Counted from the stretch's first letter, positions 15,009-33,517 are shown. The stretch: DNA of 64,000 nt from Alphaproteobacteria bacterium (GCA_963665325.3 OZ224045.1:1280001-1344000); one strand, 5' to 3'. Program-made: numbers and translations. Notes: generated by a model not told the origin, from the letters alone.

Positions 15009-15205
15009 TCGAGGCGGCCTGCGCCGAGGCGCTCGCCTGCGGCGCCTGCAGCGCCGACGTCGTGCTCAACATCCTCGCCCGGCAGCGCCAGCCGGCACCG
15101 CCGGCAATCATCCCGACGCCCGAGGGCCTGAAGCTCCGCCACCAGCCGGTGGCCGACTGTCAGCGCTACGACAGCCTGAGGGAGGCCGGTCATGGAGCGT
15201 CATGA
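15009..15205 (+). pseudogene. istA: IstA of element B, 3' part
   Basis: EAACAEAL...SADVVLNILAR...[12 protein letters not shown], a typical IstA C-terminus overlapping istB. Confidence 0.88.
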
Positions 15206-15920
15206 TGTGCTGGAGATGATGACCCAGCTGAAGCTCGCAGGCATGCGAGCCGCCTATGACGACATCCTCGCCGACGGGCTCAAGCGCCGTCATCCGGTGC
15301 AGCAGATCATCGGTACGCTGCTGCAGGTCGAGATCGCCGACAAGAGGGCACGCTCGATCAAGTACCAGATGGCGTCCGCCAAGCTGCCCACGGCCAAGGA
15401 ACTGGCCGACTTCGACTTCGCCGGCTCGCCGGTCAACGAGCCCCTGATCCAGGAGCTCGCCGGCGGCGGCTTCCTCGAGGGCCAGCGCAACATCGTCCTG
15501 GTCGGCGGCACCGGCACCGGCAAGACCCATCTCGCCGTCGCCGTCGCGCGCTCCTGCATCCGCAAGGGCGCCCGTGGCCGCTGCTACAACGTCGTCGACC
15601 TGGTGAACCACCTCGAGGCCGAACTCCGTGCCGGGCGCCAGGGCCGCACCGCAGACCAGCTCGTCCGACGCGACTTCGTCATCCTCGACGAACTCGGCTA
15701 CCTGCCCTTCGCCCAAGCCGGCGGACAGCTCCTCTTCCACCTCATGAGCCGGCTCTACGAGCGAACCTCGATCGTCATCACCACCAACCTCGCCTTCGGC
15801 GAGTGGCCGTCCGTCTTCGGCGATCCCAAGATGACCACGGCGTTGCTCGATCGTCTCACCCACCATTGCGAGATCATCGAGACCGGCAACGAGAGCTGGC
15901 GCTTCAAGAACCGCTCCTGA
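15192..15920 (+). CDS. istB: IstB ATPase of element B
   Basis: [32 protein letters not shown]. Confidence 0.95.
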
Positions 15921-17061: not shown

Positions 17062-17171
17062 TGTTAACGGCGGCGGAATAATGCTCCACAGGAAGCGCCC
17101 GGTTGGTCGGGTCGCGGCGGCGCAAAATTGCGCCAGTGATGCCCCCTTGTCCGTTTGGTCGGGGGCGGGGG

Positions 17172-18674
17172 ATGTATGGGGTGGAGCTTTACGCAGCGGT
17201 ACGACTTGCGGTTGTCGAGGAGGGTCTGAGCCATCATGAGGCCGGTCGGCGGTTCGGGATCGACCGTCGCACGGTGAAGAAGATGCTGAGCTATTCGGCG
17301 CCGCCGGGCTATCGGCGCCGGAAGCCGGTGCGTCGTCCGAAGCTGGACGGGTTCACCGGGATCGTCGATGCGATCCTGGAGGGGGACCGGGCGCCGGACG
17401 TGCCGGTCAAGCAGCGGCACACGGCGCACCGGATTTTCGAACGGCTGCGTGACGAGCACGGGTTCACGGGCGGCTACACCATCGTGAAGGACTATGTGCG
17501 CTCGCGGCGGCAGTCGTCGCGCGAGGCCTTCGTGCCGCTGCATCATCCGCCGGGCCATGCGCAGGTCGACTTCGGCGAGGCGGTGGTCGAGGTCGGCGGG
17601 CGGCGCGAGAAGGTGGCTGTCTTCTGCCTGATCCTGCCGCATAGCGACCTGTGGTTCGTGAAGGCCTATCCGAAGGAGACGACGGAGGCGTTCCTGGACG
17701 GCCATGTCAGCGCCTTCGCCTTCCTCGGCGGGGTTCCGCTTTCGGTGCTTTACGACAACACGACCCTGGCAGTGGCGCGGATCCTGGGCGACGGCACGCG
17801 TCAGCGCACGCGGGCGTTCACGCCTCTGCAGTCGCACTACCTGTTCCGCGACCGCTTCGGTCGTCCCGGCAAGGGCAACGACAAGGGCAAGGTGGAGGCG
17901 CTGGTGAAGACGGCGCGGCGCAAGTTCATGGTGCCGATCCCAAAGGTGCCCGATCTGGATGTTCTGAACGAGCGGCTTCTGGCGCGCTGCCTGGAGCGTC
18001 TCGACGCGCTGCAGCAGAGCGCGCAGGCGGCGGCGTTGCTCGCCGATCTCGACACCCTGCGCGATCTTCCGGGCGCGCCCTTCGAGGCGTGCGAGCATGT
18101 GCCGGGCCGCGTGTCCTCGACGGCGCTGGTGCGCTACCGGTCGGTGGACTACTCGGCCCCGGCGGTGCACGCCCACAAGAAGGTGACGATCAAGGGCTAT
18201 GTCGACCGGGTCGAGATCGCGCTCGGCGCCGGGATCGTCGCCCGCCACCGGCGTTCCTATGTCCGCGGCGACGTCGTTTACGACCCGCTGCACTATCTCT
18301 CGCTGCTGGAGAAGAAGCCGGGGGCGCTGGACCAGGCGGCGCCGTTGCGCGGCTGGAAGCTCGATCCAGCCTTCGACGCGTTGCGCCGCCTGCTCGAGGC
18401 GCGCTTCGGGCCGCGCGGCAAGCGGGACTACATCCAGACCCTGCGCCTGCTGGAGGACTTTCCGGAGCGCCAGGTGACGGCCGCGGTGCGGGACGCGGTG
18501 GCGCGCCGGCTGGTCGGCTTCGATGCCGTCAAGCACCTGCTGCTGGCGCGCATCGAGAAGCGTCCGGCCCATCTCGACCTGACGCGCTACCCGCACCTGC
18601 CGCAGCCCCTCGTCGCCGCCACCCGGGCCGGCGACTATGCCTCCCTGCTGGCCGGAGGGGGCAGTCGTGGCTGA
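17172..18674 (+). CDS. istA: IS21 transposase IstA
   Basis: Identical translation to 4556-6058. Confidence 0.95.
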   Translation: MYGVELYAAVRLAVVEEGLSHHEAGRRFGIDRRTVKKMLSYSAPPGYRRRKPVRRPKLDGFTGIVDAILEGDRAPDVPVKQRHTAHRIFERLRDEHGFTGGYTIVKDYVRSRRQSSREAFVPLHHPPGHAQVDFGEAVVEVGGRREKVAVFCLILPHSDLWFVKAYPKETTEAFLDGHVSAFAFLGGVPLSVLYDNTTLAVARILGDGTRQRTRAFTPLQSHYLFRDRFGRPGKGNDKGKVEALVKTARRKFMVPIPKVPDLDVLNERLLARCLERLDALQQSAQAAALLADLDTLRDLPGAPFEACEHVPGRVSSTALVRYRSVDYSAPAVHAHKKVTIKGYVDRVEIALGAGIVARHRRSYVRGDVVYDPLHYLSLLEKKPGALDQAAPLRGWKLDPAFDALRRLLEARFGPRGKRDYIQTLRLLEDFPERQVTAAVRDAVARRLVGFDAVKHLLLARIEKRPAHLDLTRYPHLPQPLVAATRAGDYASLLAGGGSRG

Positions 18675-19431
18675 GGCGCCCCGCATCCTGCTCGAACACC
18701 ACCTGAAGAAGCTCAAGCTGCCGACCGTCCTGCGGGAATACGAGAAGCTGGCCCGCCAGTGCGCGGCCGAGGGGCTGGATCATGTGCAGTTCCTCGCCCG
18801 GCTGGTGGAGATGGAGACGATCGACCGCGAGCGCCGCCTGGTCGAGCGCCGCATCCGGCAGGCCAGGTTCCCGGTCGTCAAGCAGCTCGAGAGCTTCGAC
18901 TTCAAGGCCATCCCCAGCCTCAACAAGATGCTGGTGCTCGACCTCGCGCGCGGCGATTACATCGAGCGGCGCGAGAACGCGATCCTGCTCGGCCCGAGCG
19001 GTGTGGGGAAGACGCACATCGCTCTGGCCCTCGGCCTCGCCGCCTGCCAGAAGGGCCTCGCCGTGCGCTTCACCACCGCCTCCCAGCTGGTCCACGAGAT
19101 GATCGAGGCGCGCGACGAGAAGAGGCTGCTCCGCCTCCAGGACCAGCTCGCCAGGGTCAGTCTGCTGATCGTCGACGAACTCGGATACGTGCCCCTCTCG
19201 CAGAGCGGAAGCGAGCTGCTGTTCGACATCTTCAGCCGCCGCTACGAAAACGGCGCCACAATCGTCACCTCGAACCTGCCCTTCCAGGAATGGACCTCGG
19301 TCTTCGCCAGCGAGCGGCTCACCGGCGCGCTGCTCGACCGCATCACCCACCATGTCCACATCCTGGAGATGAACGGCGAAAGCTACAGGCTCAAGCAAAG
19401 CCGGTCGCGACGACGGCCCCCCTCCGAATAA
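18667..19431 (+). CDS. istB: IS21 helper ATPase IstB
   Basis: Identical translation to 6051-6815. Confidence 0.95.
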   Translation: MAEAPRILLEHHLKKLKLPTVLREYEKLARQCAAEGLDHVQFLARLVEMETIDRERRLVERRIRQARFPVVKQLESFDFKAIPSLNKMLVLDLARGDYIERRENAILLGPSGVGKTHIALALGLAACQKGLAVRFTTASQLVHEMIEARDEKRLLRLQDQLARVSLLIVDELGYVPLSQSGSELLFDIFSRRYENGATIVTSNLPFQEWTSVFASERLTGALLDRITHHVHILEMNGESYRLKQSRSRRRPPSE

Positions 19432-20149
19432 CCCGCTTGCTCCCATAGACCACAGGTCCCTCCCACGCGCGGGTCGACGCCAGCCACATGGAGGGCGCGC
19501 CGCCCCGCGCGCGGGGCCCTCCCATGGACTATGGGGACAAGCTACCGCCAAGCCCGTGGTACATCTTTACGCCGCCCCGCCGGTACATTTTTGCTCCGCC
19601 GTTGACAGAATTCGCGGCCGATGGAGTCGCAGAACATGAACGACTGTTACAATGACCTTCCGATCGGCGAAACCCGAGCCCTGCTCCGGCATTGAGATCG
19701 ACGCCCCCGCTCGGTTCGCCTGGCCGTCCGTGGGCATGGGCCGGGGCTGTCTCCGGGCAATCCGGAACTCGCAACGTGATCGACTTGGGCCCAACTCCCG
19801 TCGCATGGCGATTCGGGCCGCCCGTTCTGTGAACGACTTCCACCATTGGTGGGCCCCTGGGGCCGGACAGTTTCATGCAGCGGCTTTGACCGGCCTGCGG
19901 CGGGTCCATCGTTGGCGCCGGCTCCGCAGAATCAGGAAGGCAGCAGCAAGGGCGAGGAAGACGAGCAGTTCCATATCCCGGCCCGCGTAGCATGTCTCCC
20001 CCGACCGCCGGCACACGGCGGCGGCCTTTTGGACCCGCCCGGTCGGCTCCGCCGCGGGCGCTTCGCACGGGACCCCTGCCGCCGACCCGAGCCCTGCGGC
20101 CGGCTCCGGCGCAAGAGGCGCAATGGTTGCCGCGTACGGCGAGACCCCG

Positions 20150-21409
20150 TCAGCGACCCGCCGGTGACGGGTGCAACCGCATGCGGGCGACCGTAAAGAC
20201 CGCGAGTGCGATGTGGACTGCCGCAGTGAAGGAGAAGAGACCGGCCGGTCCCATGAGGTTCATCGCGACCGAACCCGCGAGAGATCCGCTGACAGCGCCG
20301 AGCGAGAACAGCAGCAGCAAGCCGCTCGAAGCCTCGACGAAACCGCCGCTTTCAACCGAATCGTTCATATGCGCCGCGCAAAGCGTGTAAAGGGGAAGAG
20401 CGGACAGGCCGAACAGAAAGAAGAAGACGAACGGACCCAGCTCCCACCTCCAGATGCCGGCGCAAAGAGCCGCGCCGGCGCCGGCAATCGCGCCGGCAAT
20501 GCAGGCGAGAACCACGACGCCCCGCCTGTCGGTACGGTCCGACAACTGCGCGAGCGGCCACTGCGCCATGGCTCCCGCCATGACCGCGATGCTCATCAGG
20601 ACGGCCGCCAGGTCGCTACTCCAGAGGATGCCCGTCTGGACGAAGACGGGCGCCAGCGACCAGAACGCACCATTGGTCAGGCCGACCGCGGCAATGCCGG
20701 CGAACCCGACCCAGCACCGCCGACAGCGGCGAAGCACGCCAAGCCGGACCTCAGCGGGGCGGCATGGCGCCTCGGCCCGGCTGAAGGCAACGGGCAGGAC
20801 AGCGAGCGATATGAGGATCGACGCGCCTGCGAACAGGGCGAAGGTTCGGGGGTCGCCCAAGGTCAACAGCAACTGCCCGGCGGTGATGACGGTGAAGTTG
20901 ACGATCCTGTAAATCGAGAAGACGCGGCCGCGGTTCTCGTTGGTGGATTTTTCGTTCAGCCAGCTCTCGATGACCATGAACAGCACGGCGAGGCTGAACC
21001 CGGAAAGGGCTCTGCAGAACCACCAGACGGCAGGCGCGACCACCACGGCGTGCGCCAGTCCCAGCGCAGAAGCGAGCGACACCATGGCCGCGAAGGTCCG
21101 GACATGCCCGGCGCGGTGCACGACATGCGGGCCGGCGAAGCAGCCGATGCCGAACCCGAGGAAATAGGACGCTCCGAGAACGCCGATATCGAGCGTCGTG
21201 AAGCGTTCCGCATGGGCCCGGACCGGAAGGAGCAGGTTCTGGAGGCCGTTCCCCATCAGCAGAAAGGCGGTGCTGAAGAGCAGGGCCGCGATCGGGGCTA
21301 CAGTGCCGATGGCAAGGTGGACGCGCCCCGGGGGCGGTATGCCCGTCGTTACCCGGTCGCCGCGTCCGGCTGCAGGAGCCGGCGCGCCAGTGGTGCCGGC
21401 ATCCGGCAA
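20150..21409 (-). CDS. MFS transporter (YcaD-like); true start uncertain
   Basis: Multiple hydrophobic segments; RAGHVRTFA, VIESWLNE, RGRVFSIY, QWPLAQLSDRTDRR. Confidence 0.88.
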   Translation of the reverse strand: MPDAGTTGAPAPAAGRGDRVTTGIPPPGRVHLAIGTVAPIAALLFSTAFLLMGNGLQNLLLPVRAHAERFTTLDIGVLGASYFLGFGIGCFAGPHVVHRAGHVRTFAAMVSLASALGLAHAVVVAPAVWWFCRALSGFSLAVLFMVIESWLNEKSTNENRGRVFSIYRIVNFTVITAGQLLLTLGDPRTFALFAGASILISLAVLPVAFSRAEAPCRPAEVRLGVLRRCRRCWVGFAGIAAVGLTNGAFWSLAPVFVQTGILWSSDLAAVLMSIAVMAGAMAQWPLAQLSDRTDRRGVVVLACIAGAIAGAGAALCAGIWRWELGPFVFFFLFGLSALPLYTLCAAHMNDSVESGGFVEASSGLLLLFSLGAVSGSLAGSVAMNLMGPAGLFSFTAAVHIALAVFTVARMRLHPSPAGR

Positions 21410-22044
21410 GCAGCGCTCACGACAGGGCGACTGCAGATTATCCTTGCGGTCGTCGGAGGCGATTTTCCAGCCTGCCTGTTTTGCAATCCGGTACAGAAGA
21501 TATGGAAAAGAAAACCAGACCTTTAAGGCTTCAGGTCGATATAATTAACTTATAGTCGGTAGATCAAGAACTTTCGAAAGCGTCGATTCTTCTGCCTCTC
21601 GAATGCGAACCGGACATTCCCTTAATTGCCTTCTGCCTGCACCGCTGCCCTTGGCACAGGGAATTTCGTGTTAAGGTAGGAGTGAAGGAAAGGCGCCTTC
21701 AGGGCCGCTTTTTTCAATCCTGAAGGTGAAGGAGCCGGGGAGCCGTGCTGGAAACAGATGGGAGATATATCCCCGGCGCAAGGGGTCCCATGGCATCGCA
21801 TGACGAAGCGTGATTCTGGACAACGCCGTGACACGTGATGAGGACGCAGGCCCAAGGTCGACAACGGATTTCGGTATCGCCCCCCGCGCCGAAAGTTATT
21901 GCCGAACCCCGGGCAATTTGACGAGGCAGGAAGGCTGGAAATACGATCGGCGCGGCCACGCCGACACAACAGCTCCGAACCGTTTCCGCACCCGGTTTGC
22001 GGGCAACTCCAGTCGAGGCCTTGCGGCGGTTTCAGTCCGACAGC

Positions 22045-22910: not shown

Positions 22911-23424
22911 GACGACATTTCGACCTCTCCGCCCCCCTGCCCGGCAATGCACGGCGAAGGGTAGGCCACAATCTCCTGAGGGGGTCCTTGCAGCAGCAGG
23001 AGTCCCGAGCCTCCGATCAACCAACGCTCAGCCACCCGGAGCAATGGTGATGAGGTTACGACATCTGCTTCGCCTGGCACGGACAAACAGCTTTGTCACA
23101 TGGTCGCATTCGGGATCGGCAGCATCGTGACCGTTGCGGACGAATGGATGTCGACAGCAAGGCCGGCGACCCCGTTTGCATCTATTGGGACCTGGTCAAC
23201 GCAGGCCACACATGACCGAGGCGGCGGCAAGCCGTGTTCCGTTCGCGTGATAGCCTTTGCGAGAATTAGACCGGATCCCGGCCGGAGACCTCCTGGCGTC
23301 CGCCGACGTCTCCTGACGACGGACACGACGGCGAAAGCCGGAGAACAGCCTTGCGAGGGTGCGTGCGGGGCGGCCGGAGAGCGCCGCCCCCGCCGCGCCA
23401 ATGCAACCCTCGACGGAGACTGGC

Positions 23425-23610
23425 ATGAACCTGAATCGGCCCCAGGGCCGAACCGCTAATCCGGGAGATCCCACTGAGTTGGCTCGCGCTCGCCCCCGAG
23501 AACGTCCGCAAGACGCCGCCCGATCCCCGGGCCGACGCCAAGCTCAAGGCCTTGATCGCCGCGCTCGGCCTTCTGGAGAATCTCGTCGTCCGCACCGATG
23601 AGCCGTATGA
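23425..23610 (+). pseudogene. ParB/Spo0J N-terminal domain fragment
   Basis: IREIPLSWLALAPENVRKTP...ALGLLENLVVR; out of frame with ATG 23425 and truncated. Confidence 0.65.
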
Positions 23611-23743
23611 CGACCGCCCGACACGTAGTCTGATACGGTTGTGATGAGTTCTTCCATCCCGCCACGCCGGCGGGATTCGGTCCGTCCGCCAACCTATCTC
23701 TGTAAGCCCCTTTTTCAAGGGGTCGATGTCACCGGGTCCAATA

Positions 23744-23884
23744 TAACTTGTTGATATTATTCAATTGAACTTGTATTTTGGAAAAATGCCACAATGAGCG
23801 GACCCTCTCTGGCGGTGGGAGAGGGGATCGGAAATCATGTGGGGAATACGGACCGTTCCTTGTAAACATTTGAAGTAATTGATT
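23744..23884. promoter_or_regulatory. AT-rich att-like region with IHF-consensus sites and a tRNA-3'-end-like motif
   Basis: TAACTTGTTGATA at 23744 matches YAANNNNTTGATW; near match at 23872; TGGCGGTGGGAGAGGGGA at 23810-23827 is the reverse complement of ...CCCACCGCCA. Confidence 0.4.
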
Positions 23885-24323
23885 AATTTTCAAGACTCCG
23901 TTCGAATTAAGTTGGCATTTTGCCGGCCGTCTTTGCTGTTTGGCGTCAGCTGCGGAAGCCGGCGCCGAAAACTGGTGGATCGACCACCTCACACGATGTT
24001 CTTCGGAGAACCGCGACAGCCACATCGTCAACGCGATAATCCAAATATGCATGCGTGCGAAGCGCGCCCCAGCGGAGATTGGCAAGCACAGCTCTCCTGT
24101 CGCGCCTCCCGAGGCCTGAGTGGTTGGATCAACCTTTGCGTCTGGGGTATGGCCAGCCGGGGCATGCGGGGTGTTGCGGAGCGGGGTCGTGACCGGACGA
24201 GTGCAGAGCAGGTCCGCCAAAGGCCTCGATAGCCAGCTGCGAGCGGGATTCCGTTGCATGCCGTGCAAAGCCGCAAACTGCCGAGGTTGCATTACGACTC
24301 CGGCCCTTACTGGATCGGATCCC

Positions 24324-27059
24324 TTATATCTTTCTGCTCAGCATCAAATCCTTCAAAACAGGATCGCCTACTGAGCCTTCGCGCATGGCCGACAACTGTC
24401 CGTGTATCGCGTCAAACTTCCCGTCGGCCTCCAACCGGAATTCCTCATCTTCCTGCACCGCCTTGAAGCCGAACGCGTCCTCCTTGCGCCGATAGATGTC
24501 GAACAGGTGGACCTCCGGGCCTTTCATGCCAGGCAAGGGCTTCAGGCCACTGATGATCAGCGGGCTAAGGTTCAGGGCCAGTCCCCGTTCCGGCGAAATC
24601 AGGAACACAAGGCCGGACGGAACACCCTGTTCGCCTTTGTAATCGAACAGATTTCCGAAGGGAGCGTGTGGACCCTGGATGCTGCGGAATATCCCTTCGA
24701 AGCTTCCGAAGGAGAACTGTGCTTGCCGCACGTCCTCAAAGTACCCCATGTGGTTTTCTGCGAAGGACTTCGCCAGGACATTGCCGACCAGCCCGATGAT
24801 GCGGGGATAGTCTAGACCGCGGGCGACCTTTCCGTGCTTTGCCTGCGCGACTCCGTTGACGGCTGCGTTCAATTTCGACGCAAAATCGCCCGTCGTCAAC
24901 GCCACGGCATACTCGGCGAAGACGGCTCTGTCGCCCAGCGCCTTCGAACATTTGTTCAAGAGGTCCCACAACGGACCCGCCGACCGGTGTTCGTATCCCT
25001 TGAACATCAAGGACGACGATGTACCCGCTTCCGCGAGACACTCCACGTAACAGACGTAGGCAGCCACGGAAAGCATGCATTCGAGGGTTTCCCGGCCCCA
25101 TTTCTGGAGGCCGTCCTTGCTTGTCTCTGCGATGAAGCAGGCAAGTGGATACGCCATCGGATACGGGAGCACTTGCACGAGGTCACCTAAATCCCGCCAG
25201 GTACTGTCCTTCGACCTATGCTGGAATTCGTCGACATCGGCGTTCTTCACATATGAGAACGCCGATGTGCTGGTTCCAAAATCGAATCCCAAATAGGTGT
25301 CGCCAGCCACTTCCGCCGCCGCAAACGTCATGTCCATGTAAAACGGATTTCCATCGACGATGACTTGCCGCCCACGATTGCCGCCACGCCCGTAGATGAA
25401 CTTGGGCAACGCGGTGCCGTCGCCGCGAACGGTAAGCTCGATCTCGATCGTGCCGCCGAACTTCGTTCCGCCCGGCGTTTCGACCCTCTTGTCCACGAGA
25501 TTATGGAGGTTGTCAAAGTCCTCTGGCTCGAACGACGCTCTCAAGAAATAGTAATCCAGATAGAGCGACGGCGTCGTGGACAGCTTGGTCTTCCACCTGA
25601 GCGGTTTGTCTATTCTTCCTCTCAAGCTGCTGGCCGAAGGTAACAAGACTCCGTTCTCGTAGGTTTCTCTGGGAAGATGATCCGACGACGGCCGATAGCG
25701 CCGGGTTTCAGGCCCGTTTCCGTTGGGATCGAGCGACAGGCACAGTCTGTTATAGGTCACCGCCCGGAAATCACCTTCCCCCTTGGTATAGTATCTACGG
25801 GCGCATTCGACCGCCAAACCCTTTGCGACAATCTCCTGAAAGTCTTCCGACAGCTCCAAAACCTGCGCATCTGCCAGATCGCTTCTGAGATCTCGCTCGA
25901 TCAGTTGAGTCAACCAGCGCATGTTCGACGAACCGCCGGACAGCAGAACCACGGAAAGCGACTTTCCCCCGAGCGCTTGTGCGGCCCGGGTCAAGCCGCT
26001 CCTTATGGCCGGCAGCAACTTCTGTCTCCACACCCGATCTTCGAAGATCCGGCGTATCCGGGCCGCATCAAGCCGAATTTCTATACCATCCGGGTTTGCA
26101 GAGAACGGTCGGCGTGGCACCCGTACGCGAATCGCCGCGGCGTTGCTCAGATCAGCGTCGACTCGCCAGTCTGGAATGTTCGAACAAATCGAAATCTTGG
26201 CATCCTCAACGTCCCGCAGCAGCGTCCGATAGGTACCGAAGAAGCATAGAGTATCGTCGCGAAATTCCGACAGATCCGCTGCGTCGTAGTTCTTGACTTG
26301 GTCGAACCTGTCTATGGCTTTTCGAACAGCCGTCTTGCTCTCCTTCTTTTCGATCGCCTCGAACAAGAGATCGGCGGCGATGAGTTTATTCACATAAAAT
26401 CCACCGACAGGGATCGAACTCGCGGACAGAGGGCGGGAATGACGACCGCCCTGGCTGATGTCGCCCTCCGCCGTAGTTTCAATTACCGATACGTCAAACG
26501 TTCCTCCCCCGAAATCCATTACAAGCGCAATGTGCTTTTGCTTCTGTGCGATAAGCGCATGCTTTAGCCCGTATCTGTAATACTGGAAAACCGCAAACGG
26601 CTCCGGCATAAAATCGACTTCCTCGAACTTCCCGTGCAGGATTCTGCGTAAAGCCGCTCGATAATTCGCCAGCCATGAGTCAGTTGCTGCCTCTCCTCCA
26701 CCCAAGGAGAGAGGCTCCGCGATCAGGATACGTTTCGGATAGGGTTCTCCGCGTAGCTCCAATTCATCCGCCAGCTTCGCGAGAACACCGTCACAAAAAT
26801 CTTTGGCTGTACCGATGGGCGATCGTAATGCGGTGCCGTTGAGGCCGATAGCTCTTGCGGCCAACGCGGCCGGACCCTTCATTCCCAACTCGATCTTGAA
26901 GTCGTCCCGCAAGTGCTCCGTGAGAGCGGGCTGATCCAAAGCCTCGTGGCCAATGACAGGCTTACCGTCATTGTAGTAGACAGCGGTGGGAATGGTTCGG
27001 GCCCCGTCAATAGGGGTCAACTGCACCGCAGTAATAAAGAGCTCCTTTTTGCTGCTCAC
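24324..27059 (-). CDS. Hsp70/actin-like ATPase domain protein (911 aa), apparently circularly permuted, with an extra C-terminal domain
   Basis: GARTIPTAVYY, PEPFA, MDFGGGTFDVS, VLLSGGSS; phosphate-1-like LGFDFGTSTS sits near residue 590; GTG start with GAGAGG RBS; lower GC than the flanks. Confidence 0.8.
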   Translation of the reverse strand: MSSKKELFITAVQLTPIDGARTIPTAVYYNDGKPVIGHEALDQPALTEHLRDDFKIELGMKGPAALAARAIGLNGTALRSPIGTAKDFCDGVLAKLADELELRGEPYPKRILIAEPLSLGGGEAATDSWLANYRAALRRILHGKFEEVDFMPEPFAVFQYYRYGLKHALIAQKQKHIALVMDFGGGTFDVSVIETTAEGDISQGGRHSRPLSASSIPVGGFYVNKLIAADLLFEAIEKKESKTAVRKAIDRFDQVKNYDAADLSEFRDDTLCFFGTYRTLLRDVEDAKISICSNIPDWRVDADLSNAAAIRVRVPRRPFSANPDGIEIRLDAARIRRIFEDRVWRQKLLPAIRSGLTRAAQALGGKSLSVVLLSGGSSNMRWLTQLIERDLRSDLADAQVLELSEDFQEIVAKGLAVECARRYYTKGEGDFRAVTYNRLCLSLDPNGNGPETRRYRPSSDHLPRETYENGVLLPSASSLRGRIDKPLRWKTKLSTTPSLYLDYYFLRASFEPEDFDNLHNLVDKRVETPGGTKFGGTIEIELTVRGDGTALPKFIYGRGGNRGRQVIVDGNPFYMDMTFAAAEVAGDTYLGFDFGTSTSAFSYVKNADVDEFQHRSKDSTWRDLGDLVQVLPYPMAYPLACFIAETSKDGLQKWGRETLECMLSVAAYVCYVECLAEAGTSSSLMFKGYEHRSAGPLWDLLNKCSKALGDRAVFAEYAVALTTGDFASKLNAAVNGVAQAKHGKVARGLDYPRIIGLVGNVLAKSFAENHMGYFEDVRQAQFSFGSFEGIFRSIQGPHAPFGNLFDYKGEQGVPSGLVFLISPERGLALNLSPLIISGLKPLPGMKGPEVHLFDIYRRKEDAFGFKAVQEDEEFRLEADGKFDAIHGQLSAMREGSVGDPVLKDLMLSRKI

Positions 27060-27190
27060 TTTGTCATCCCTCTCCCATTCGATTCGCAAAGCTCGAGCGG
27101 TCCATTGAAACGCCGGCAGCCCAGATACTATGCAACACAGCCATTCAGTGTTTTTTGCACAATCCACTCTGTTTCGGAACCCATCCGATC

Positions 27191-27246
27191 TAATTTGTTG
27201 ATTTCATTGGATGCAAGTCCAACATGGCGAGTGTAACCGGTTGATT
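27191..27246. promoter_or_regulatory. Two IHF-consensus sites
   Basis: TAATTTGTTGATT (27191) and TAACCGGTTGATT (27234). Confidence 0.45.
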
Positions 27247-27739
27247 TGTCGAGATCTTGGGCTTGTTTTCCGCCCATGCAGGGGATTCTGTGACAATCGG
27301 GGTTTTGGGAAGCAGATCTTGTCACGTTGGCCCGATGCCCGTGCCAGTTGCGGGACCGCTGCGCACCGCCTGAGGCGGTAGGATGCCGTCGGGTAAACCA
27401 ACACTGTGGAGCGGTTCCATGCCAGTGCCGCAGTCTTCCTCGTGCTCGTCCATTCATGGTTCGGGCTTGCCCGGTCTGTTTGCGGAGGCGCTGTCGGGGC
27501 TAGCCGCGGTTTATCACGAGCCGCTTGCTGCGGCACCAAGCGCGACGGTATTCGAGGAGGCCGAGCGGTGTGTTCGGGGGAGCGTGAACGCGCTGAGTTG
27601 CGAGGTTCTAGTGGCTTGGATCAAGGGCCTTGACGGCGGGGCGCTGCGGGTCGGTCGGACCGGGCAGCGACGGTTCCGTGTGGCGGTGACGCCTGAGCAC
27701 GTTCCTCCCGGTGACCTACAGGCGGGCGCACTATCACAA

Positions 27740-28315
27740 GGCGTGAGCCGGCGCTTGCTCGTGTCCGTGGAATGGCTGCCGACGGTCTGGGGCGGCGAGA
27801 ACGGGTTTGCGGAAATCGACGAGGCGGACGAGATCGCGGCTGCGGTGCTCAATCACTACAACCGGGTCGCACGGGAACTGGCCGAGGAGCCGGAGGCCTA
27901 CGCGCCGGTCATGGAGGTCGACCGGGCCGACGGCGAGCTGCTGTGGGGGCCGTGGATCAACGGCTTCGAACGCGCGATGCGGCTGCGCGCCGATGCCTGG
28001 GACGCCGTCGCGTTCGGCGATGACGAGGAGGCCGCGGCGTCGGTCGGCACGATCCTGGCTATGAACGCCTTCGACCAAGGCGAATCGGAACTGACCGAGG
28101 AAGAGGAGGACGAGATCGACCGGACGGAGCCGGACCTGATCCATTCGATGGTGCGCCACCTGACGGCGCGGAAGTCGGCGCGGCCGCTGCACCGGATCGG
28201 TCCTGGGGATATCGCGTTCGACGAACCGCCGGCCCATGGACGCCACGCGGTGAGCGATGAGCCCTACCTCTGCGGGTCCGGACGCACATACGGGCGATGC
28301 TGCGGTGCACACTGA
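27740..28315 (+). pseudogene. UPF0149 (YecA-like) protein with degenerate SEC-C motif; N-terminus appears replaced
   Basis: EWLPTVWG, VLNHYNRVA, WINGFERAM, and C-terminal DEPYLCGSGRTYGRCCG (SEC-C with the first Cys lost). Confidence 0.7.
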
Positions 28316-28384
28316 GACGGCCGGAAGGTCTGGAAGCACGCCGGCGAAGGACGATTCGAAACGGGCGGCGACCCGTCGAGCTGC

Positions 28385-29677
28385 TTGTCCCTAGACGACG
28401 CCATATACGAGGTGTTCGGGCCGCTGCCGCAGGGCGCGCCGGGCAACGACGCCTCGACGCTGCGTGCGCTCGATGCCGTGCCGAACCGCAATGCCGTCCG
28501 ACGGGTGCTCGACCTGGGTGCAGGGCACGGCCGCACGACCCTCGCCCTGGCGCAGGCGTTGCCGGATACCCGGATTACGGCCGTCGAGATCCATGCGCCC
28601 TTCTCCGAACGGATCGCCGAACGCGCCCGCGAGACGCGCGTTGCGGACCGGGTCCATGCGGAATGCGGGGACATGGCGAAGATCGATGTTGCCCCAGAGA
28701 GCATCGACCTGATCTGGGCGGAAGGATCGATCTATGTCGTGGGCATGGAGCGGGCGTTCGCCATGTGGCGCCCCTGGCTTCGTGCGGGCGGCTGCGTCGC
28801 ATTCAGCGACTTCGTTTGGTGGACCGGCGATCCATCGGAAGAGGCCCGTGCGTTCTGGGCGGTGGAATATCCGGACATGGCGACGGAAGACGCAATCCGG
28901 TCTCGCGCGGAGGCCGCCGGGTATCGGGTCGTCAGCAGCTTCCGCATGTCGAGGGAAGCGCATGATGCCTATTACGTCCCGCTGGAGGCGCGCGTCGCCG
29001 AACTTGCCGGATGCGCCGATACCGGGGTCCGCAGAGTGCTTGAAGGCATTCGAAAGGAAATCGACGTCGTCCGGCGCTTTCCCGACGAGGCGGGCTACAC
29101 ATTCTTCACACTCCAGCGCGGTGACGGCCGCGCCGGGGCTGCCGGCGGCAACGGCTGGACGAGCGGATCGGATGCGGCGAGACAAGCGGCAGGCCGGCGA
29201 CGCGGGCCGATCTGGCCCGGGCAGACGACGAGACGGTCGGGCTGTCGCGTGTATCGGGTCAGTCGGCCCTGCCGCATGCTTGGCCGGCGCGTGGCGGCAG
29301 GTTATATGTTGCTGAAATGTTCCCTATTTCGTGAGAAGCCTCCATGCACAAGGAAGACAGCCTGCCGGCGCCGCACGATGAAGTGCTCTTCGATATCGAG
29401 ATGGCGCTCAGCAAGGAAGAGAAACTGTGGCCGAAGCGCTACAGGCCCGGCGACCACAACCGCCTCAGACCCATGGCGCGCGCGATCCTCGAGCATCTCG
29501 AACTCTGCGGCCTGCGGTTCTTCCGCAAACCGCCCGCGCCGAGACACAGCACGCCGGATCCTTGGGGCGGCGCCGGAACAGGGAAGGAAAGTGGCTGAAG
29601 GGGGGTGTTCGCCGGTCACGACGAAAGCGCCGCCGCATGGGCACGCATCGCTTCGCTCATCGAGACCGCGAAGCTGA
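28385..29677 (+). CDS. Class I SAM-dependent methyltransferase (homology ends near 29125; the remainder looks like read-through)
   Basis: VLDLGAGHG, DLIWAEGSIY, LRAGG, GYTFF. Confidence 0.8.
   Translation: MSLDDAIYEVFGPLPQGAPGNDASTLRALDAVPNRNAVRRVLDLGAGHGRTTLALAQALPDTRITAVEIHAPFSERIAERARETRVADRVHAECGDMAKIDVAPESIDLIWAEGSIYVVGMERAFAMWRPWLRAGGCVAFSDFVWWTGDPSEEARAFWAVEYPDMATEDAIRSRAEAAGYRVVSSFRMSREAHDAYYVPLEARVAELAGCADTGVRRVLEGIRKEIDVVRRFPDEAGYTFFTLQRGDGRAGAAGGNGWTSGSDAARQAAGRRRGPIWPGQTTRRSGCRVYRVSRPCRMLGRRVAAGYMLLKCSLFREKPPCTRKTACRRRTMKCSSISRWRSARKRNCGRSATGPATTTASDPWRARSSSISNSAACGSSANRPRRDTARRILGAAPEQGRKVAEGGCSPVTTKAPPHGHASLRSSRPRS
29344..29598 (+). CDS. Hypothetical protein
   Basis: ATG with GAGAAG upstream and globular-looking sequence; overlaps the methyltransferase read-through tail. 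Confidence 0.45.
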   Translation: MHKEDSLPAPHDEVLFDIEMALSKEEKLWPKRYRPGDHNRLRPMARAILEHLELCGLRFFRKPPAPRHSTPDPWGGAGTGKESG

Positions 29678-31199: not shown

Positions 31200-31615
31200 T
31201 CTTCCGTCAACGTGGCACCGCTGGATAGGAAGTCACCGACGGGCGCATTCTCCCCAATTCGACATCGAACGCAAATCTGACGCTCCGATCGCCGCGCGAC
31301 GGGATCCTGCGAACGGAGCAGAATCCGCGCGGCCCGAATGTTGAAAATCCTATAACATCTAAATGAACCGATTGACACCTCGTTCGCCTTCCCTCAGCAT
31401 CCCGGCCTGAACGTTACTTCCCACCTTACTCCAGACCACTACTGATGGCACTGCGTACACCAGCACCTCGTCCCCAAACCTGAGTAATCCCAGCCTTCCG
31501 CCATGCGTCACCGCTTAGCAAGCTATGGACTTTCAGCCTTGTTCTTCGTTGGACCAATTAACACCACCCTCAGTTACCTACTATCGCAACTTACGCGATA
31601 ATCAACGAGGCGCAA

Positions 31616-32356
31616 ATGCAAATTATTTCTTGGAATATTTTGAATAGAAACAAGGACATTAGCACGTTATACAGCTTTCTCAATGAGACTGACGCGGACG
31701 TCTATGTGTTTCAAGAACTCGCAGAACATCATATAGCCGCAATCGAAACACTTCCAGGATATACGCTTCACAAAGCCCTCGACTTCATCGAAGGTGAAGA
31801 GACCGCATATCTCGGTATTTTGACGCGACTTCCTTCCTGCAATCCAAAAATAATCGTTCACAACCCCGACCTCCACATAAGCCCCTCCTGGATCGGTCGG
31901 CGAAACGCTTGGCGAGAGTGCATAGAATCCTTATCAATTACTGTTAGAGATGGCGATCAAAGCGTACGAATCATTAACGCTCATCTTGTCTGTGCCGCCT
32001 CCCCAAGTGTGCGAATTGTTCAGCTAGAAGACATTTCACAACATTTTGAACATAACGAGCGAATTCTATTGTGCGCTGATTTTAATACATTTGCCCGGCC
32101 CTGGTACAACTTTATACTAGGGTGGTTTTTCGGTTTTAAAGTTCATGACTTACGGACAAACGAAATCGCATCCTTGAAAACCTTTTCAGACAAACACGCC
32201 ATGCATAGGGCATTTGTTAATGTCGTCACTTTTCCGCGATTCAGATTGCAACTTGATAATATGCTAGTCAGAGGACTCCACGTCACTATGAGCCGAGTAG
32301 GGACTTACACCTACGGATCAGATCATCGGCCCCTAATTGCAACGTTCGATAGCTGA
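31616..32356 (+). CDS. Endonuclease/exonuclease/phosphatase (EEP) family protein
   Basis: IISWNI, FQE, NAHL, ADFN, LDNM, GSDHRP; low GC. Confidence 0.9.
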   Translation: MQIISWNILNRNKDISTLYSFLNETDADVYVFQELAEHHIAAIETLPGYTLHKALDFIEGEETAYLGILTRLPSCNPKIIVHNPDLHISPSWIGRRNAWRECIESLSITVRDGDQSVRIINAHLVCAASPSVRIVQLEDISQHFEHNERILLCADFNTFARPWYNFILGWFFGFKVHDLRTNEIASLKTFSDKHAMHRAFVNVVTFPRFRLQLDNMLVRGLHVTMSRVGTYTYGSDHRPLIATFDS

Positions 32357-32365
32357 GGTGAACAT

Positions 32366-33517
32366 ATGATAACAACATGTCCTTCCTCTCATGATCGATT
32401 AGTAATGGATCAAAAAGCACTATACTCTTTGTATTTATGTTTGTTCATAGTTGCCAGTCTGGGCCATAGTCTTGCTTACTTTGGTCCCTTTTCTAGCGAA
32501 TTATGGTGGTACTTAGACGGCAACTACGCATGGGTATTGGGAATACAGCGTATAATGGTAGTTGCGCTCCTATCCATATTTGCGCTGAGGAATATGAGGT
32601 TAATATCATCACAAGTTTCGTCAAATCGACTTCTGAATCTCTTTCCCAAGAGAAGGGCGGCCCGTATTTTATTCGTGTTATCGTTGATAGGTCTGCCAGT
32701 ACTGGTTTATTTTCTCGGTCAAGGCGCTATTTCTTCTGCTGAAGACAAGGGCCGCGAGGTGGCGCCACAATCTGAGATCAAGGAGGTGTGGCTGCCATAT
32801 ATCTGGTACTCTCTTTATGTGTATGCACTTTGGGGGGGAATGTTCATTTATTTCCTATACTGTGTAACAGTTAGCGGTATAAACGATATTAATTGGATTC
32901 GAGCAAACGGCGCGCGCCTTGTTGATGAGATCGAGAAACAAACCGCAACGGCGCAGAAAATGTCAGCGGAGCTCGATAACGTTGAGATGCTCTTTCAGTC
33001 GCATGTGGAAGCCGTGCGCGATATCGGACAACGCAATGCAGTAGCGGTTTTAGTATTGGTTCTCGCGTTAATGCACGAGAGGTTGCTGGCCGAGTCGGTG
33101 ACATTAATTTCTCACGAGTTAGCAAAAAGCGCAATTTTGTGTATGATGCTGTTTACGGTTGTTGTCGTTGTTTTGGTATTGCGACCGTACGCTAAACTTT
33201 GGGAGAATGTTTCGTCGACTAGCATGATGTTGGCGGCGAAGACCTCAAGTTTGGGAGATACAAGGGGATATGGTCGTTGGATCAGTTTTTACCGGATTGT
33301 GAAGACGGAGAATAGTCCGGGAAGATTAGTGAGGGCGATACTCATGGGCGGAGGAGTTAGCATGTCACTTATTGTGAGCGTGGCCGGGTTCGCGTTTAAT
33401 GTTCTCGGTGGAAAAGGGGACGGGTTTATAGACGTGTCAAAGGCAATTATCCCAGAATGGCTGATTGAGAGTATTTGTAATTTGATCGTATTTCTGGGAA
33501 GTCAATCTCCCCATTGA
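32366..33517 (+). CDS. Hypothetical multi-pass membrane protein
   Basis: Several hydrophobic stretches; GAGGTG RBS; starts 9 bp after the EEP gene; low GC. Confidence 0.75.
   Translation: MITTCPSSHDRLVMDQKALYSLYLCLFIVASLGHSLAYFGPFSSELWWYLDGNYAWVLGIQRIMVVALLSIFALRNMRLISSQVSSNRLLNLFPKRRAARILFVLSLIGLPVLVYFLGQGAISSAEDKGREVAPQSEIKEVWLPYIWYSLYVYALWGGMFIYFLYCVTVSGINDINWIRANGARLVDEIEKQTATAQKMSAELDNVEMLFQSHVEAVRDIGQRNAVAVLVLVLALMHERLLAESVTLISHELAKSAILCMMLFTVVVVVLVLRPYAKLWENVSSTSMMLAAKTSSLGDTRGYGRWISFYRIVKTENSPGRLVRAILMGGGVSMSLIVSVAGFAFNVLGGKGDGFIDVSKAIIPEWLIESICNLIVFLGSQSPH

Follow-up and report, generated by a model that had tools for sequence, protein, structure and literature searches.

Gene and Motif Order

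The window analyzed here is the whole of a 64,000-nucleotide stretch from an alphaproteobacterial genome (Alphaproteobacteria bacterium, GCA_963665325.3, OZ224045.1:1280001-1344000), and the gene in question occupies positions 24324-27059 of its minus strand, encoding an Hsp70-like protein of 911 aa in which one motif of the nucleotide-binding domain (NBD) is displaced. The open reading frame (ORF) is uninterrupted over 24324-27167 and amounts to 947 aa if counted from an upstream in-frame GTG. The GTG at 27059 is the likely start, giving the 911 aa implied by the coordinates of the original prediction and a stop codon at 24324-24326; it was favored because a Shine-Dalgarno-like GGGAGAGGG, read directly from the sequence, lies 8 nt upstream (27068-27076, minus strand) and because homologs share an MSxxKxLF start. 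The resulting N terminus, MSSKKELFITAVQLTPIDGARTIPTAVYYNDGKPVIG, carries no DxG motif, and neither does the 36-aa extension from the upstream GTG. As had been noted before, the gene is low in G+C, at 0.55-0.60 versus 0.65-0.72 in the flanks (18000-21500 and 27500-29000).

The phosphate-2 motif DFGGGTFD (residues 182-189; 26493-26516) and the adenosine-binding motif LLSGGSS (residues 372-378; 25926-25946) follow one another in canonical Hsp70 order, and YLGFDFGTSTS (residues 589-599) stands behind a domain resembling the beta-sandwich of the Hsp70 substrate-binding domain (SBD-beta). The latter motif is part of YLGFDFGTSTSAFSY at residues 589-603 (25251-25295), within which the originally reported 25263-25292 falls. 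The missing N-terminal motif, the normal order of the first two motifs, and a phosphate-1 motif near residue 590 were all found as the original prediction had described them. K55, in FKIELG (26895-26897), is by position what we take to be the equivalent of the catalytic lysine of Hsp70. Profile libraries recognized little of the protein: the Pfam HSP70 match covered only the 33 aa of residues 163-195 (21.9 bits, cut-off 20.6), NCBIfam DnaK reached 23.2 of the 648 bits required, and PADLOC returned one weak match, PDC-M61B, over the 69 residues 172-240 of the phosphate-2 region (E 0.0012, 15.6 bits).

A word-indexed search yielded 488 relatives at E <= 1e-3 among 7999 scored candidates, and the 120 of these that were listed measured 598-977 aa, mostly ~900-915 aa; among these listed matches, the only database names were "Hsp70 family protein," "molecular chaperone," and "hypothetical protein." When 50%-identity representatives were searched exhaustively, 432 matched at E <= 1e-3, of which 155 reached E <= 1e-30. 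In the alignment of 66 full-length members, with identity down to 29%, F54, K55, E115, P116, E153, D182, G184, G186, D189, S374, G375, G376, G591, D593, F594, G595, and H742 were invariant (F54 and K55 in 66/66). These presumably include the catalytic residues of Hsp70: a Lys following beta3, a Glu in the "EP" strand, and the Asp/Thr of both phosphate loops. An N-terminal phosphate-1 motif was present in 0/66 members, so that the homologs with an intact N-terminal motif that would have marked the gene as a truncation were absent from this set, and the layout, shared by 66/66 full-length relatives, is therefore a family trait.

More distant Hsp70-like relatives were drawn from a broad, generic-motif set of at least 43 loci, which held one full-length family member. 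All 13 whose N-termini were read open with the canonical DxG hairpin, which in some has the sequence IDFGTSTSS. When the 13 canonical hairpins were made into a profile, its best match (with E-values calculated for the 66-sequence set) was internal in each of the 66 family members. These matches lay within about 574-695, their starts ranged over 574-682 (mostly 580-612), and in the window protein the match covered 590-606. No N-terminal match was returned in the 66 members, and the only other matches were weak ones to the phosphate-2 hairpin at ~167-203. Among the unpermuted proteins, those of three actinobacterial loci (L005, L006, and L020) have an N-terminal hairpin (I/V)DFGTS(T/A)SS followed by FKRDLG. 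Because both motifs are close to the internal hairpin and the FKIELG of the family, these proteins may be its nearest unpermuted relatives.

Structure of the NBD and SBD-beta

An NBD without beta1-beta2 spans residues 8-425 (25785-27038), from the beta3 equivalent to the C-terminal helix, and is followed by the linker (GDFRAVTYNRL; ~426-437) and an SBD-beta-like sandwich (~435-575), residues 430-575 lying at 25335-25772, all on the minus strand and delimited by VIA-align against Hsp70 structures. The full-length AlphaFold2 model, built from the 66-row alignment, had a mean predicted local distance difference test score (pLDDT) of 83.7 and a predicted template modeling score (pTM) of 0.67. With Foldseek, residues ~8-575 matched Hsp70 NBD plus SBD-beta at E 4e-17 to 1e-13. 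A two-lobed, actin-like NBD was also recovered by VIA-align, at Z 24-29 with 330-450 residues aligned to Hsp70 NBDs or NBD-SBD-beta chains, for example 7rax (Z 25.3, root-mean-square deviation [rmsd] 3.8, 344 aligned, chain 20-393) and 1nga (Z 24.8, chain 22-381), the NBD-only alignments spanning model residues 8 to 423/428.

The canonical Hsp70 chain runs from the beta1-beta2 phosphate-1 hairpin through the rest of the NBD and the linker to SBD-beta. In 50/50 listed structural rows, the alignment began at residue 7-11 of the model and at residue 19 or later of the Hsp70 chain, with model residue 8 equivalent to residue 20 of Escherichia coli DnaK (7krv_A, 7rax, and 4b9q_D) and to residue 22 in Hsc70/Hsp70 NBDs. 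As the alignment opens at DnaK residue 20, the protein begins at the beta3 equivalent. Toward the other end, chains comprising both domains were aligned as far as model residues 572-579 (chain residues 501-530), placing an SBD-beta after the linker; AMPylated BiP 6eof (Z 26.4, rmsd 5.1, 450 aligned, chain 45-530), the "stimulating state" of DnaK 7krv_A (Z 25.8), and ATP-bound DnaK 4b9q_D (Z 24.7, chain 20-501) were among them. NBD and SBD-beta superposed together, as one body, on docked Hsp70 states. For the helical lid of Hsp70, the listed rows ended at ~579 except for two reaching 615-623, and the helical bundle at residues 606-768 gave no lid row.

Placement of the Internal Hairpin

The relocated beta1-loop-beta2 hairpin comprises residues 588-605 (25245-25298, minus strand), with YLGFDFGTSTS at 25263-25295. 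In the full-length model, DSSP assigned strands 588-593 and 598-605, and pLDDT was 93 over 591-600. When residues 576-911 were folded alone, the two strands still formed (13-19 and 24-30 of that model) at a lower pLDDT of ~79-80.

Residues 1-440 were also predicted as a complex with residues 578-625, ATP, and Mg. The interaction prediction score from aligned errors (ipSAE) was 0.88, 0.88, and 0.83, compared with 0.00 for the best of three controls; the mark that these values passed is reached by 116/157 solved complexes and 2/215 mismatched pairs, a calibration that is rough here given our own alignment and the ligands riding along. The runs shared at least 85% of contacts, with a partner pLDDT of 68, and set residues 585-606 at the canonical beta1-beta2 place. 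Residues 590-592 contacted strand 111-113, presumably the equivalent of the Hsp70 "AVITVP" strand beside beta1; 591-593 contacted helix 411-419; and 599 contacted T25, on the N-terminal strand that is the beta3 equivalent, with the GGGT loop (184-187) inside the interface. A hairpin lying away from the nucleotide pocket, the outcome that would have spoken against the original prediction, was thus not what the models gave, as they set it by the GGGT loop.

Conservation, structural alignment, the hairpin profile, and the controlled complex prediction agree with the earlier proposal of a permuted NBD whose phosphate-1 hairpin comes after the SBD-like domain. We conclude that the gene very probably encodes a naturally circularly permuted Hsp70, with the hairpin supplied from behind SBD-beta. 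The case for this fold is strong; what is said below of function is inferred.

The C-Terminal Module

Behind the hairpin, the model and conservation define a family-specific helical bundle at residues 606-768 (24756-25244), followed by a beta-rich domain at residues 770-911 by DSSP (24327-24752), both on the minus strand. Folded alone from 74 rows, residues 576-911 reached pLDDT 93.0 and pTM 0.90. In the bundle, RSAGPLW (692-698) and N760 are conserved and a KH(G)K motif lies at 741-744, where H742 is invariant and K741 nearly so; G772, F774, E775, G789, F791, R792, P833, and D854 are the conserved positions of the beta-rich domain.

Searches with the module gave no Foldseek row at E <= 1e-3 in PDB or BFVD, no VIA-align row at Z >= 8 over 48,161 chains (best Z 7.0), nothing in Pfam on residues 607-911 or on the 46-aa hairpin piece, nanobody-level noise in a PDB sequence profile search (E >= 0.016), and best scores of 0.84 and 0.82 in the ESM Atlas, under the 0.9 lead level. 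In the length range searched, 172-608 aa, the module did not turn up outside the permuted family: all 44 profile matches there were judged to be fragments or broken copies of its members. A locus search with a single C-terminal query returned the closest relative only.

The original prediction had described the tail as helical and HEPN-like. The helical part of that description holds for residues 606-768, but not for the beta-rich 770-911. As for HEPN, the best rows for the helical part were the Roquin HEPN/ROQ structures 4txa and 4qik (Z 7.0 each), interleaved with bundles of the G protein-coupled receptor type, and further HEPN rows for the bundle (~612-768; 110-125 residues aligned) were 1jog (5.5), 8xdj (5.3), 5yep_B (4.8), and 2hsb (4.6), MNT-associated HEPN being among them; VIA-align states that Z 8-13 is common for helical bundles, and all HEPN rows fell below this range. 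Pfam gave no HEPN match, and the Rx4-6H motif is absent, since residues 735-738 are not conserved and include no Arg, H742 is preceded by K741, and R692 is 50 residues away. With scores of Z 4.6-7.0 within noise, no Arg 4-6 residues before the invariant H742, and half of the tail beta-rich, membership of the tail in HEPN is not supported. The structural similarity of the modeled helical part to HEPN domains is a lead, not a match. A link between HEPN and Hsp70 fusions of this kind is not made in the accessible portion of PMC3710099.

Genomic Context and Mobility

Loci of homologs were collected from a 7-row alignment and are a sample of those of the family. All-ORF clustering found no conserved neighbor across 22 loci or across 89 loci; no neighbor family was common to more than a handful of loci, and the larger clusters were the gene itself and its internal shadow ORFs. 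This agrees with the earlier description of a stand-alone gene. Nucleotide similarity to the closest relatives is limited to the gene as well, covering 24321-27121 and ending at the stop codon in L049 (87% protein identity) and covering 24379-27078 in L050 (78% protein identity). Downstream of the gene, the minus-strand ORFs 23729-24292 and 23266-23718 had no Pfam or PADLOC match and are probably non-coding. Given the lack of matches and the end of the L049 similarity at the stop codon, no operon partner is proposed. In L047, on a Bradyrhizobium barranii plasmid (10727-11859), the homolog is followed by overlapping genes of 103 and 274 aa without a Pfam match and then by ZacA/ZacB-like genes; the 187-aa ORF at 23729-24292, the only ORF compared, showed no similarity to the two small genes.

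The gene is patchily distributed. It has one copy in the window's genome, and 400 other genomes sampled from the phylum contained no credible copy, the single row (E 5.7e-4) having three in-frame stops. Hosts of the homologs include Alpha-, Beta-, Gamma-, and Deltaproteobacteria, Nitrospinae, Acidobacteria, and Verrucomicrobia. Copies split into at least two ORFs occurred in 4/18 listed genome loci: L051 (Mesorhizobium delmotii), L053 (Sphingomonas spermidinifaciens), L061 (an Acidobacteriaceae metagenome-assembled genome, MAG), and L064 (a Sphingomonas MAG); frameshifts, decay, or assembly errors would each account for them.

Genes of mobile elements lay within 3.8 kb in 8/20 genome or plasmid loci. 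These were conjugation genes (L047 and L059), Tn7-like TnsA/B/TniB (L056), a recombinase with RepB (L054), ParA (L057), a Tn3-type gene with an integrase (L061), a RepB primase with IS21 (L062), and an integrase (L066). The window itself contains an IS21-family IstB (15192-15920), an IstA-like transposase (17103-18674), and an integrase-like ORF; with the IS21 genes, the region reads as a mosaic of mobile DNA.

Defense Genes Beside the Homologs

Using PADLOC, we scanned 123 ORFs of 20 genome loci at E <= 1e-10 and 111 ORFs of 40 metagenome loci at E <= 1e-12. From the latter set, 35 ORFs of L074, L079, L083, L088, L096, L099, L104, L111, L118, and L128 had been dropped as likely duplicates by ORF layout, together with two ORFs of L098 and L101.

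Clear defense neighbors (within ~4 kb) were present in 5/20 genome loci, namely ZacA and ZacB in L047, a type II methyltransferase in L049, HEC-05, a methyltransferase, and Vsr in L054, HmaA, HmaB, NsnA, and WYL in L063, and type I S and R subunits in L066. Three ambiguous loci were left uncounted: L056 (Tns), L058 (a kinase and an RtcR-like protein), and L059 (a coupling protein matching mad8). Defense neighbors were also found in 11/40 metagenome loci (L068, L076, L084, L087, L089, L098, L103, L105, L106, L115, and L131), including LmuA/LmuB in L076, a DRT-type reverse transcriptase in L084, PglZ and BrxL in L087, and DrmD in L106.

In some of these loci the homolog is embedded in, or directly attached to, a defense operon. 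A Verrucomicrobiia MAG (L063, 3722-13013) has it between HmaA, an SNF2 helicase, and HmaB, a DUF1156 adenine methylase, with its stop codon overlapping the HmaB start, a GmrSD/NsnA-like gene behind, and a WYL regulator ahead. It starts 18 nt after hsdR of a type I hsdS-hsdR pair in L066 (4031-9996), directly after pglZ-brxL of a BREX system in L087 (796-9005), and directly after lmuA-lmuB of a Lamassu system in L076 (1408-8015); in these last three loci the homologs may be co-transcribed add-ons to other defense systems. A truncated copy (L048) lies beside drmD of DISARM on a Bradyrhizobium japonicum plasmid. In the window, two divergent neighbors are encoded on the plus strand, a UPF0149/SEC-C protein at 27383-28315, for which PADLOC returned the candidate PDC-S12 (E 1.5e-13), and a class I methyltransferase at 28385-29677, for which it returned mad2 (E 2.8e-15). 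mad2-like methylases also adjoin the homologs of L049 and L098.

Proposed Working and Alternative Explanations

A defense or conflict role is plausible from this gene context, if still short of probable. Taken as a whole, the explanation that we favor, with moderate confidence, is a permuted Hsp70 switch acting as a single-gene conflict or anti-phage sensor-effector of the abortive-infection type. Its chain order would be the rest of the NBD (8-425), the linker, the SBD-beta-like domain (~435-575), and then the hairpin (588-605), which would fold back into subdomain IA and complete the ATP site. Since all ATPase residues are invariant, the enzyme is probably active, a judgment made from the alignment. 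The new termini fall between beta2 and beta3; SBD-beta would thus be anchored to the NBD at both of its ends, and it is modeled in a docked, ATP-like arrangement. From beta2 of the hairpin the chain is predicted to pass straight into the bundle (606-768) and then into the beta-rich domain (770-911). Binding of a ligand at the SBD-beta-like domain would change ATP turnover, as in Hsp70 allostery, and because the hairpin is covalently joined to both SBD and tail, the nucleotide state could be passed mechanically to the C-terminal module. Output would then fall to the module, in which the invariant H742 may serve as an active-site or contact residue. The gene would move as a single-gene cassette via plasmids, transposons, integrative elements, and defense islands, and would most likely act alone.

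A bolder version, which we hold to be rather doubtful, is that this is the first natural circular permutation of the NBD-SBD unit of Hsp70, and that through it the chaperone cycle has become an immune switch made of one protein. The hairpin would here be a mechanical tie-rod, linking a permanently docked SBD-beta that senses a phage or foreign polypeptide to a new effector fold built around the invariant H742; ATP hydrolysis, or release of the hairpin, would fire the effector, and copies in Hma, type I restriction-modification (RM), BREX, and Lamassu operons might guard those systems as a back-up.

Several points tell against the favored explanation. The place of the hairpin rests on one predictor's contact list and confidence values rather than on a permutation-aware superposition. 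That predictor may have drawn on its memory of solved Hsp70 NBDs, and a pass in the complex prediction would indicate that the split parts resemble an intact NBD, not that the protein folds so; the hairpin could also insert in trans, into another protomer. Roughly 44 of the 60 loci had no PADLOC neighbor, many of them with short flanks, and some are housekeeping-like, such as L055 with SecA, TilS, and DnaX. For the defense role the case is one of association, set against no matched background count, and the protein itself has no convincing PADLOC match (PDC-M61B, as above, E 0.0012). Searches of Pfam, PDB, and BFVD and with VIA-align revealed no recognizable enzyme fold or motif in the C-terminal module, for which the word "effector" is a guess, a sensor or oligomerization domain being equally possible.

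Some of these points suit a protein of the same topology that is a specialized chaperone or stress protein carried on mobile elements, its tail a replacement for the lid or a client adaptor, with no part in conflict. The NBD and SBD-beta are Hsp70-like with intact ATPase residues, the lid of Hsp70 is likewise a helical domain after SBD-beta, the tail showed no nuclease, protease, or other toxin motif, and L055, L060, L065, and L067 are among the loci without defense neighbors. Yet the gene is rare and patchy (0 credible copies in the 400 further genomes sampled from the phylum), acts as a mobile cassette of one gene, has copies lodged in loci of Hma, type I RM, BREX, and Lamassu systems, is often broken, and has no J-domain or GrpE-like partner conserved nearby in the 22 and 89 loci, all of which makes a chaperone without a conflict role unlikely. 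Compared with that, it is considerably less probable that the internal DFG hairpin is what remains of a second, degraded ASKHA/Hsp70 domain left by tandem duplication and packed within the C-terminal module, the first NBD working without phosphate-1 or being an inactive nucleotide binder. The complex model puts residues 585-606 at the beta1-beta2 place (0.88 versus 0.00), pLDDT of the hairpin rises to 93 in the full-length model, and what follows the hairpin is helical, without a match to any ASKHA chain; moreover, GxDFG is invariant along with all other catalytic residues in 66 sequences, which is hard to explain for a vestige. Such an intermediate is nevertheless what permutation by duplication predicts, the hairpin forms even in the C-terminal-only model (pLDDT ~79-80), and CnuD of CoCoNuT systems, a defense-linked Hsp70-like protein, is thought to be a poor ATPase in the part of PMC11090510 accessible to us.

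A dnaK-like pseudogene that was 5'-truncated, frameshifted, or mis-started might be suspected from the mere 33 residues that Pfam recognizes as HSP70 and from the upstream in-frame GTG that lengthens the ORF to 947 aa. However, the 36-aa extension lacks DxG and the frame is open throughout, many intact relatives of ~900-915 aa share the start and the layout in many phyla, and the window's sequence recurs in metagenomic contigs of public runs (X1 and X3), a piece of 4002 bases from X1 having 0 differences. An artifact is thus extremely improbable, and the pseudogene or mis-start reading is refuted by the family-wide conservation.

Relation to Known Systems

Like canonical Hsp70/DnaK (PF00012), the protein has an NBD, linker, and SBD-beta that superpose on the known structures, and it keeps the phosphate-2 and adenosine motifs and a putative catalytic Lys and Glu. 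Unlike canonical Hsp70, whose phosphate-1 hairpin is N-terminal, it has this hairpin at 588-605 behind SBD-beta; a helical lid did not clearly align, an extra 300-aa module without a fold match is present, and no DnaJ or GrpE neighbor is conserved in the 22 and 89 loci.

Few molecular machines have been studied as thoroughly as Hsp70, whose allostery depends on SBD-NBD docking and on the geometry of both phosphate loops. The family described here would alter both by natural means, with a phosphate loop coming from behind the SBD, the SBD tied at both ends, and a new domain on the catalytic hairpin. Hsp70 allostery could be studied in it as a ready-made experiment, and engineered ATP-gated switches could be modeled on it. 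If the defense reading is true, it would also represent an Hsp70-based single-gene anti-phage system and a new effector or sensor fold without a solved relative.

The anticodon nuclease PrrC is reportedly encoded inside a type Ic hsd operon, and embedding of this kind is seen for the homolog (X) in L063 (HmaA-X-HmaB), L066 (hsdR-X), and L087 (pglZ-brxL-X), and as the remnant by drmD in L048. It concerns a minority of loci only, and the two proteins have no relation in sequence or fold. A guard function for embedded copies, by analogy with PrrC, would be pure conjecture.

HEPN domains supplied the best structural rows for the bundle at ~612-768, at Z below the range common for helical bundles; Rx4-6H and a Pfam HEPN match are absent. 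The match to PDC-M61B over the phosphate-2 region is weak and probably reflects a shared Hsp70-like motif only; PDC-M61 is a multi-gene candidate, unlike the stand-alone gene here.

The nearest described proteins are the Hsp70-like CnuD or CnuCD of CoCoNuT systems. In the accessible portion of its description (Bell et al., eLife 2024, PMC11090510), CnuD belongs with McrBC-like CnuB/C GTPase systems, has HEAT-like repeats and degenerate ATPase motifs, and is not said to have a permuted NBD. Both families have an Hsp70-like unit followed by a helical domain and occur in defense islands; the permuted family, set apart from CnuD by that description only, has no conserved partner in 89 loci and invariant ATPase motifs. 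Among the 123 scanned neighbors there was no McrBC-type Pfam match, and hence no linkage to CnuB/CnuC. Full-text searches of literature open without subscription returned neither a permuted Hsp70 or ASKHA ATPase nor any paper devoted to the permuted family.

Flanking Signals and Other Features of the Window

The original prediction had mentioned sites resembling those of integration host factor (IHF) on both sides of the gene, and these were recovered. The consensus WATCAANNNNTTR has three matches in the 64-kb window, all flanking the gene (23744-23756, 27191-27203, and 27234-27246), against a chance expectation of 0.19; 0/100 shuffles reached three, shuffles that ignore the locally lower G+C. 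Two of the sites lie within the copies of a 25-nt imperfect direct repeat, the upstream copy at 27184-27208 holding 27191-27203, with the site at 27234-27246 being the second upstream one, and the downstream copy at 23737-23761 holding 23744-23756. The copies are 80% identical and 3447 nt apart, and they bracket the gene and a low-G+C non-coding tail of ~570 nt. Judging by their placement in the sequence, repeats and IHF-like sites may have a regulatory part or be left over from the insertion of a cassette. Promoter and terminator scans of the sequence did not exceed shuffles (3 vs. 2.0 +/- 1.4 and 7 vs. 4.5 +/- 2.5, respectively).

The metagenomic contigs were fragmentary, and neither a clean empty site nor a cassette boundary was seen in them. 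In run X4, an identical contig covers 24327-25443 only, the 3' 1.1 kb with the hairpin and the C-terminal module, at a depth far above that of the flank contigs and with loose ends at 24177 and 25369. A variant context or a mosaic could each account for it, and contig depths cannot decide between them. Further along the window, a patch of very low G+C (0.42-0.46) at 31500-33000 contains, beside a 383-aa ORF without a match, an ORF for an EEP-family nuclease/phosphatase (31616-32356).

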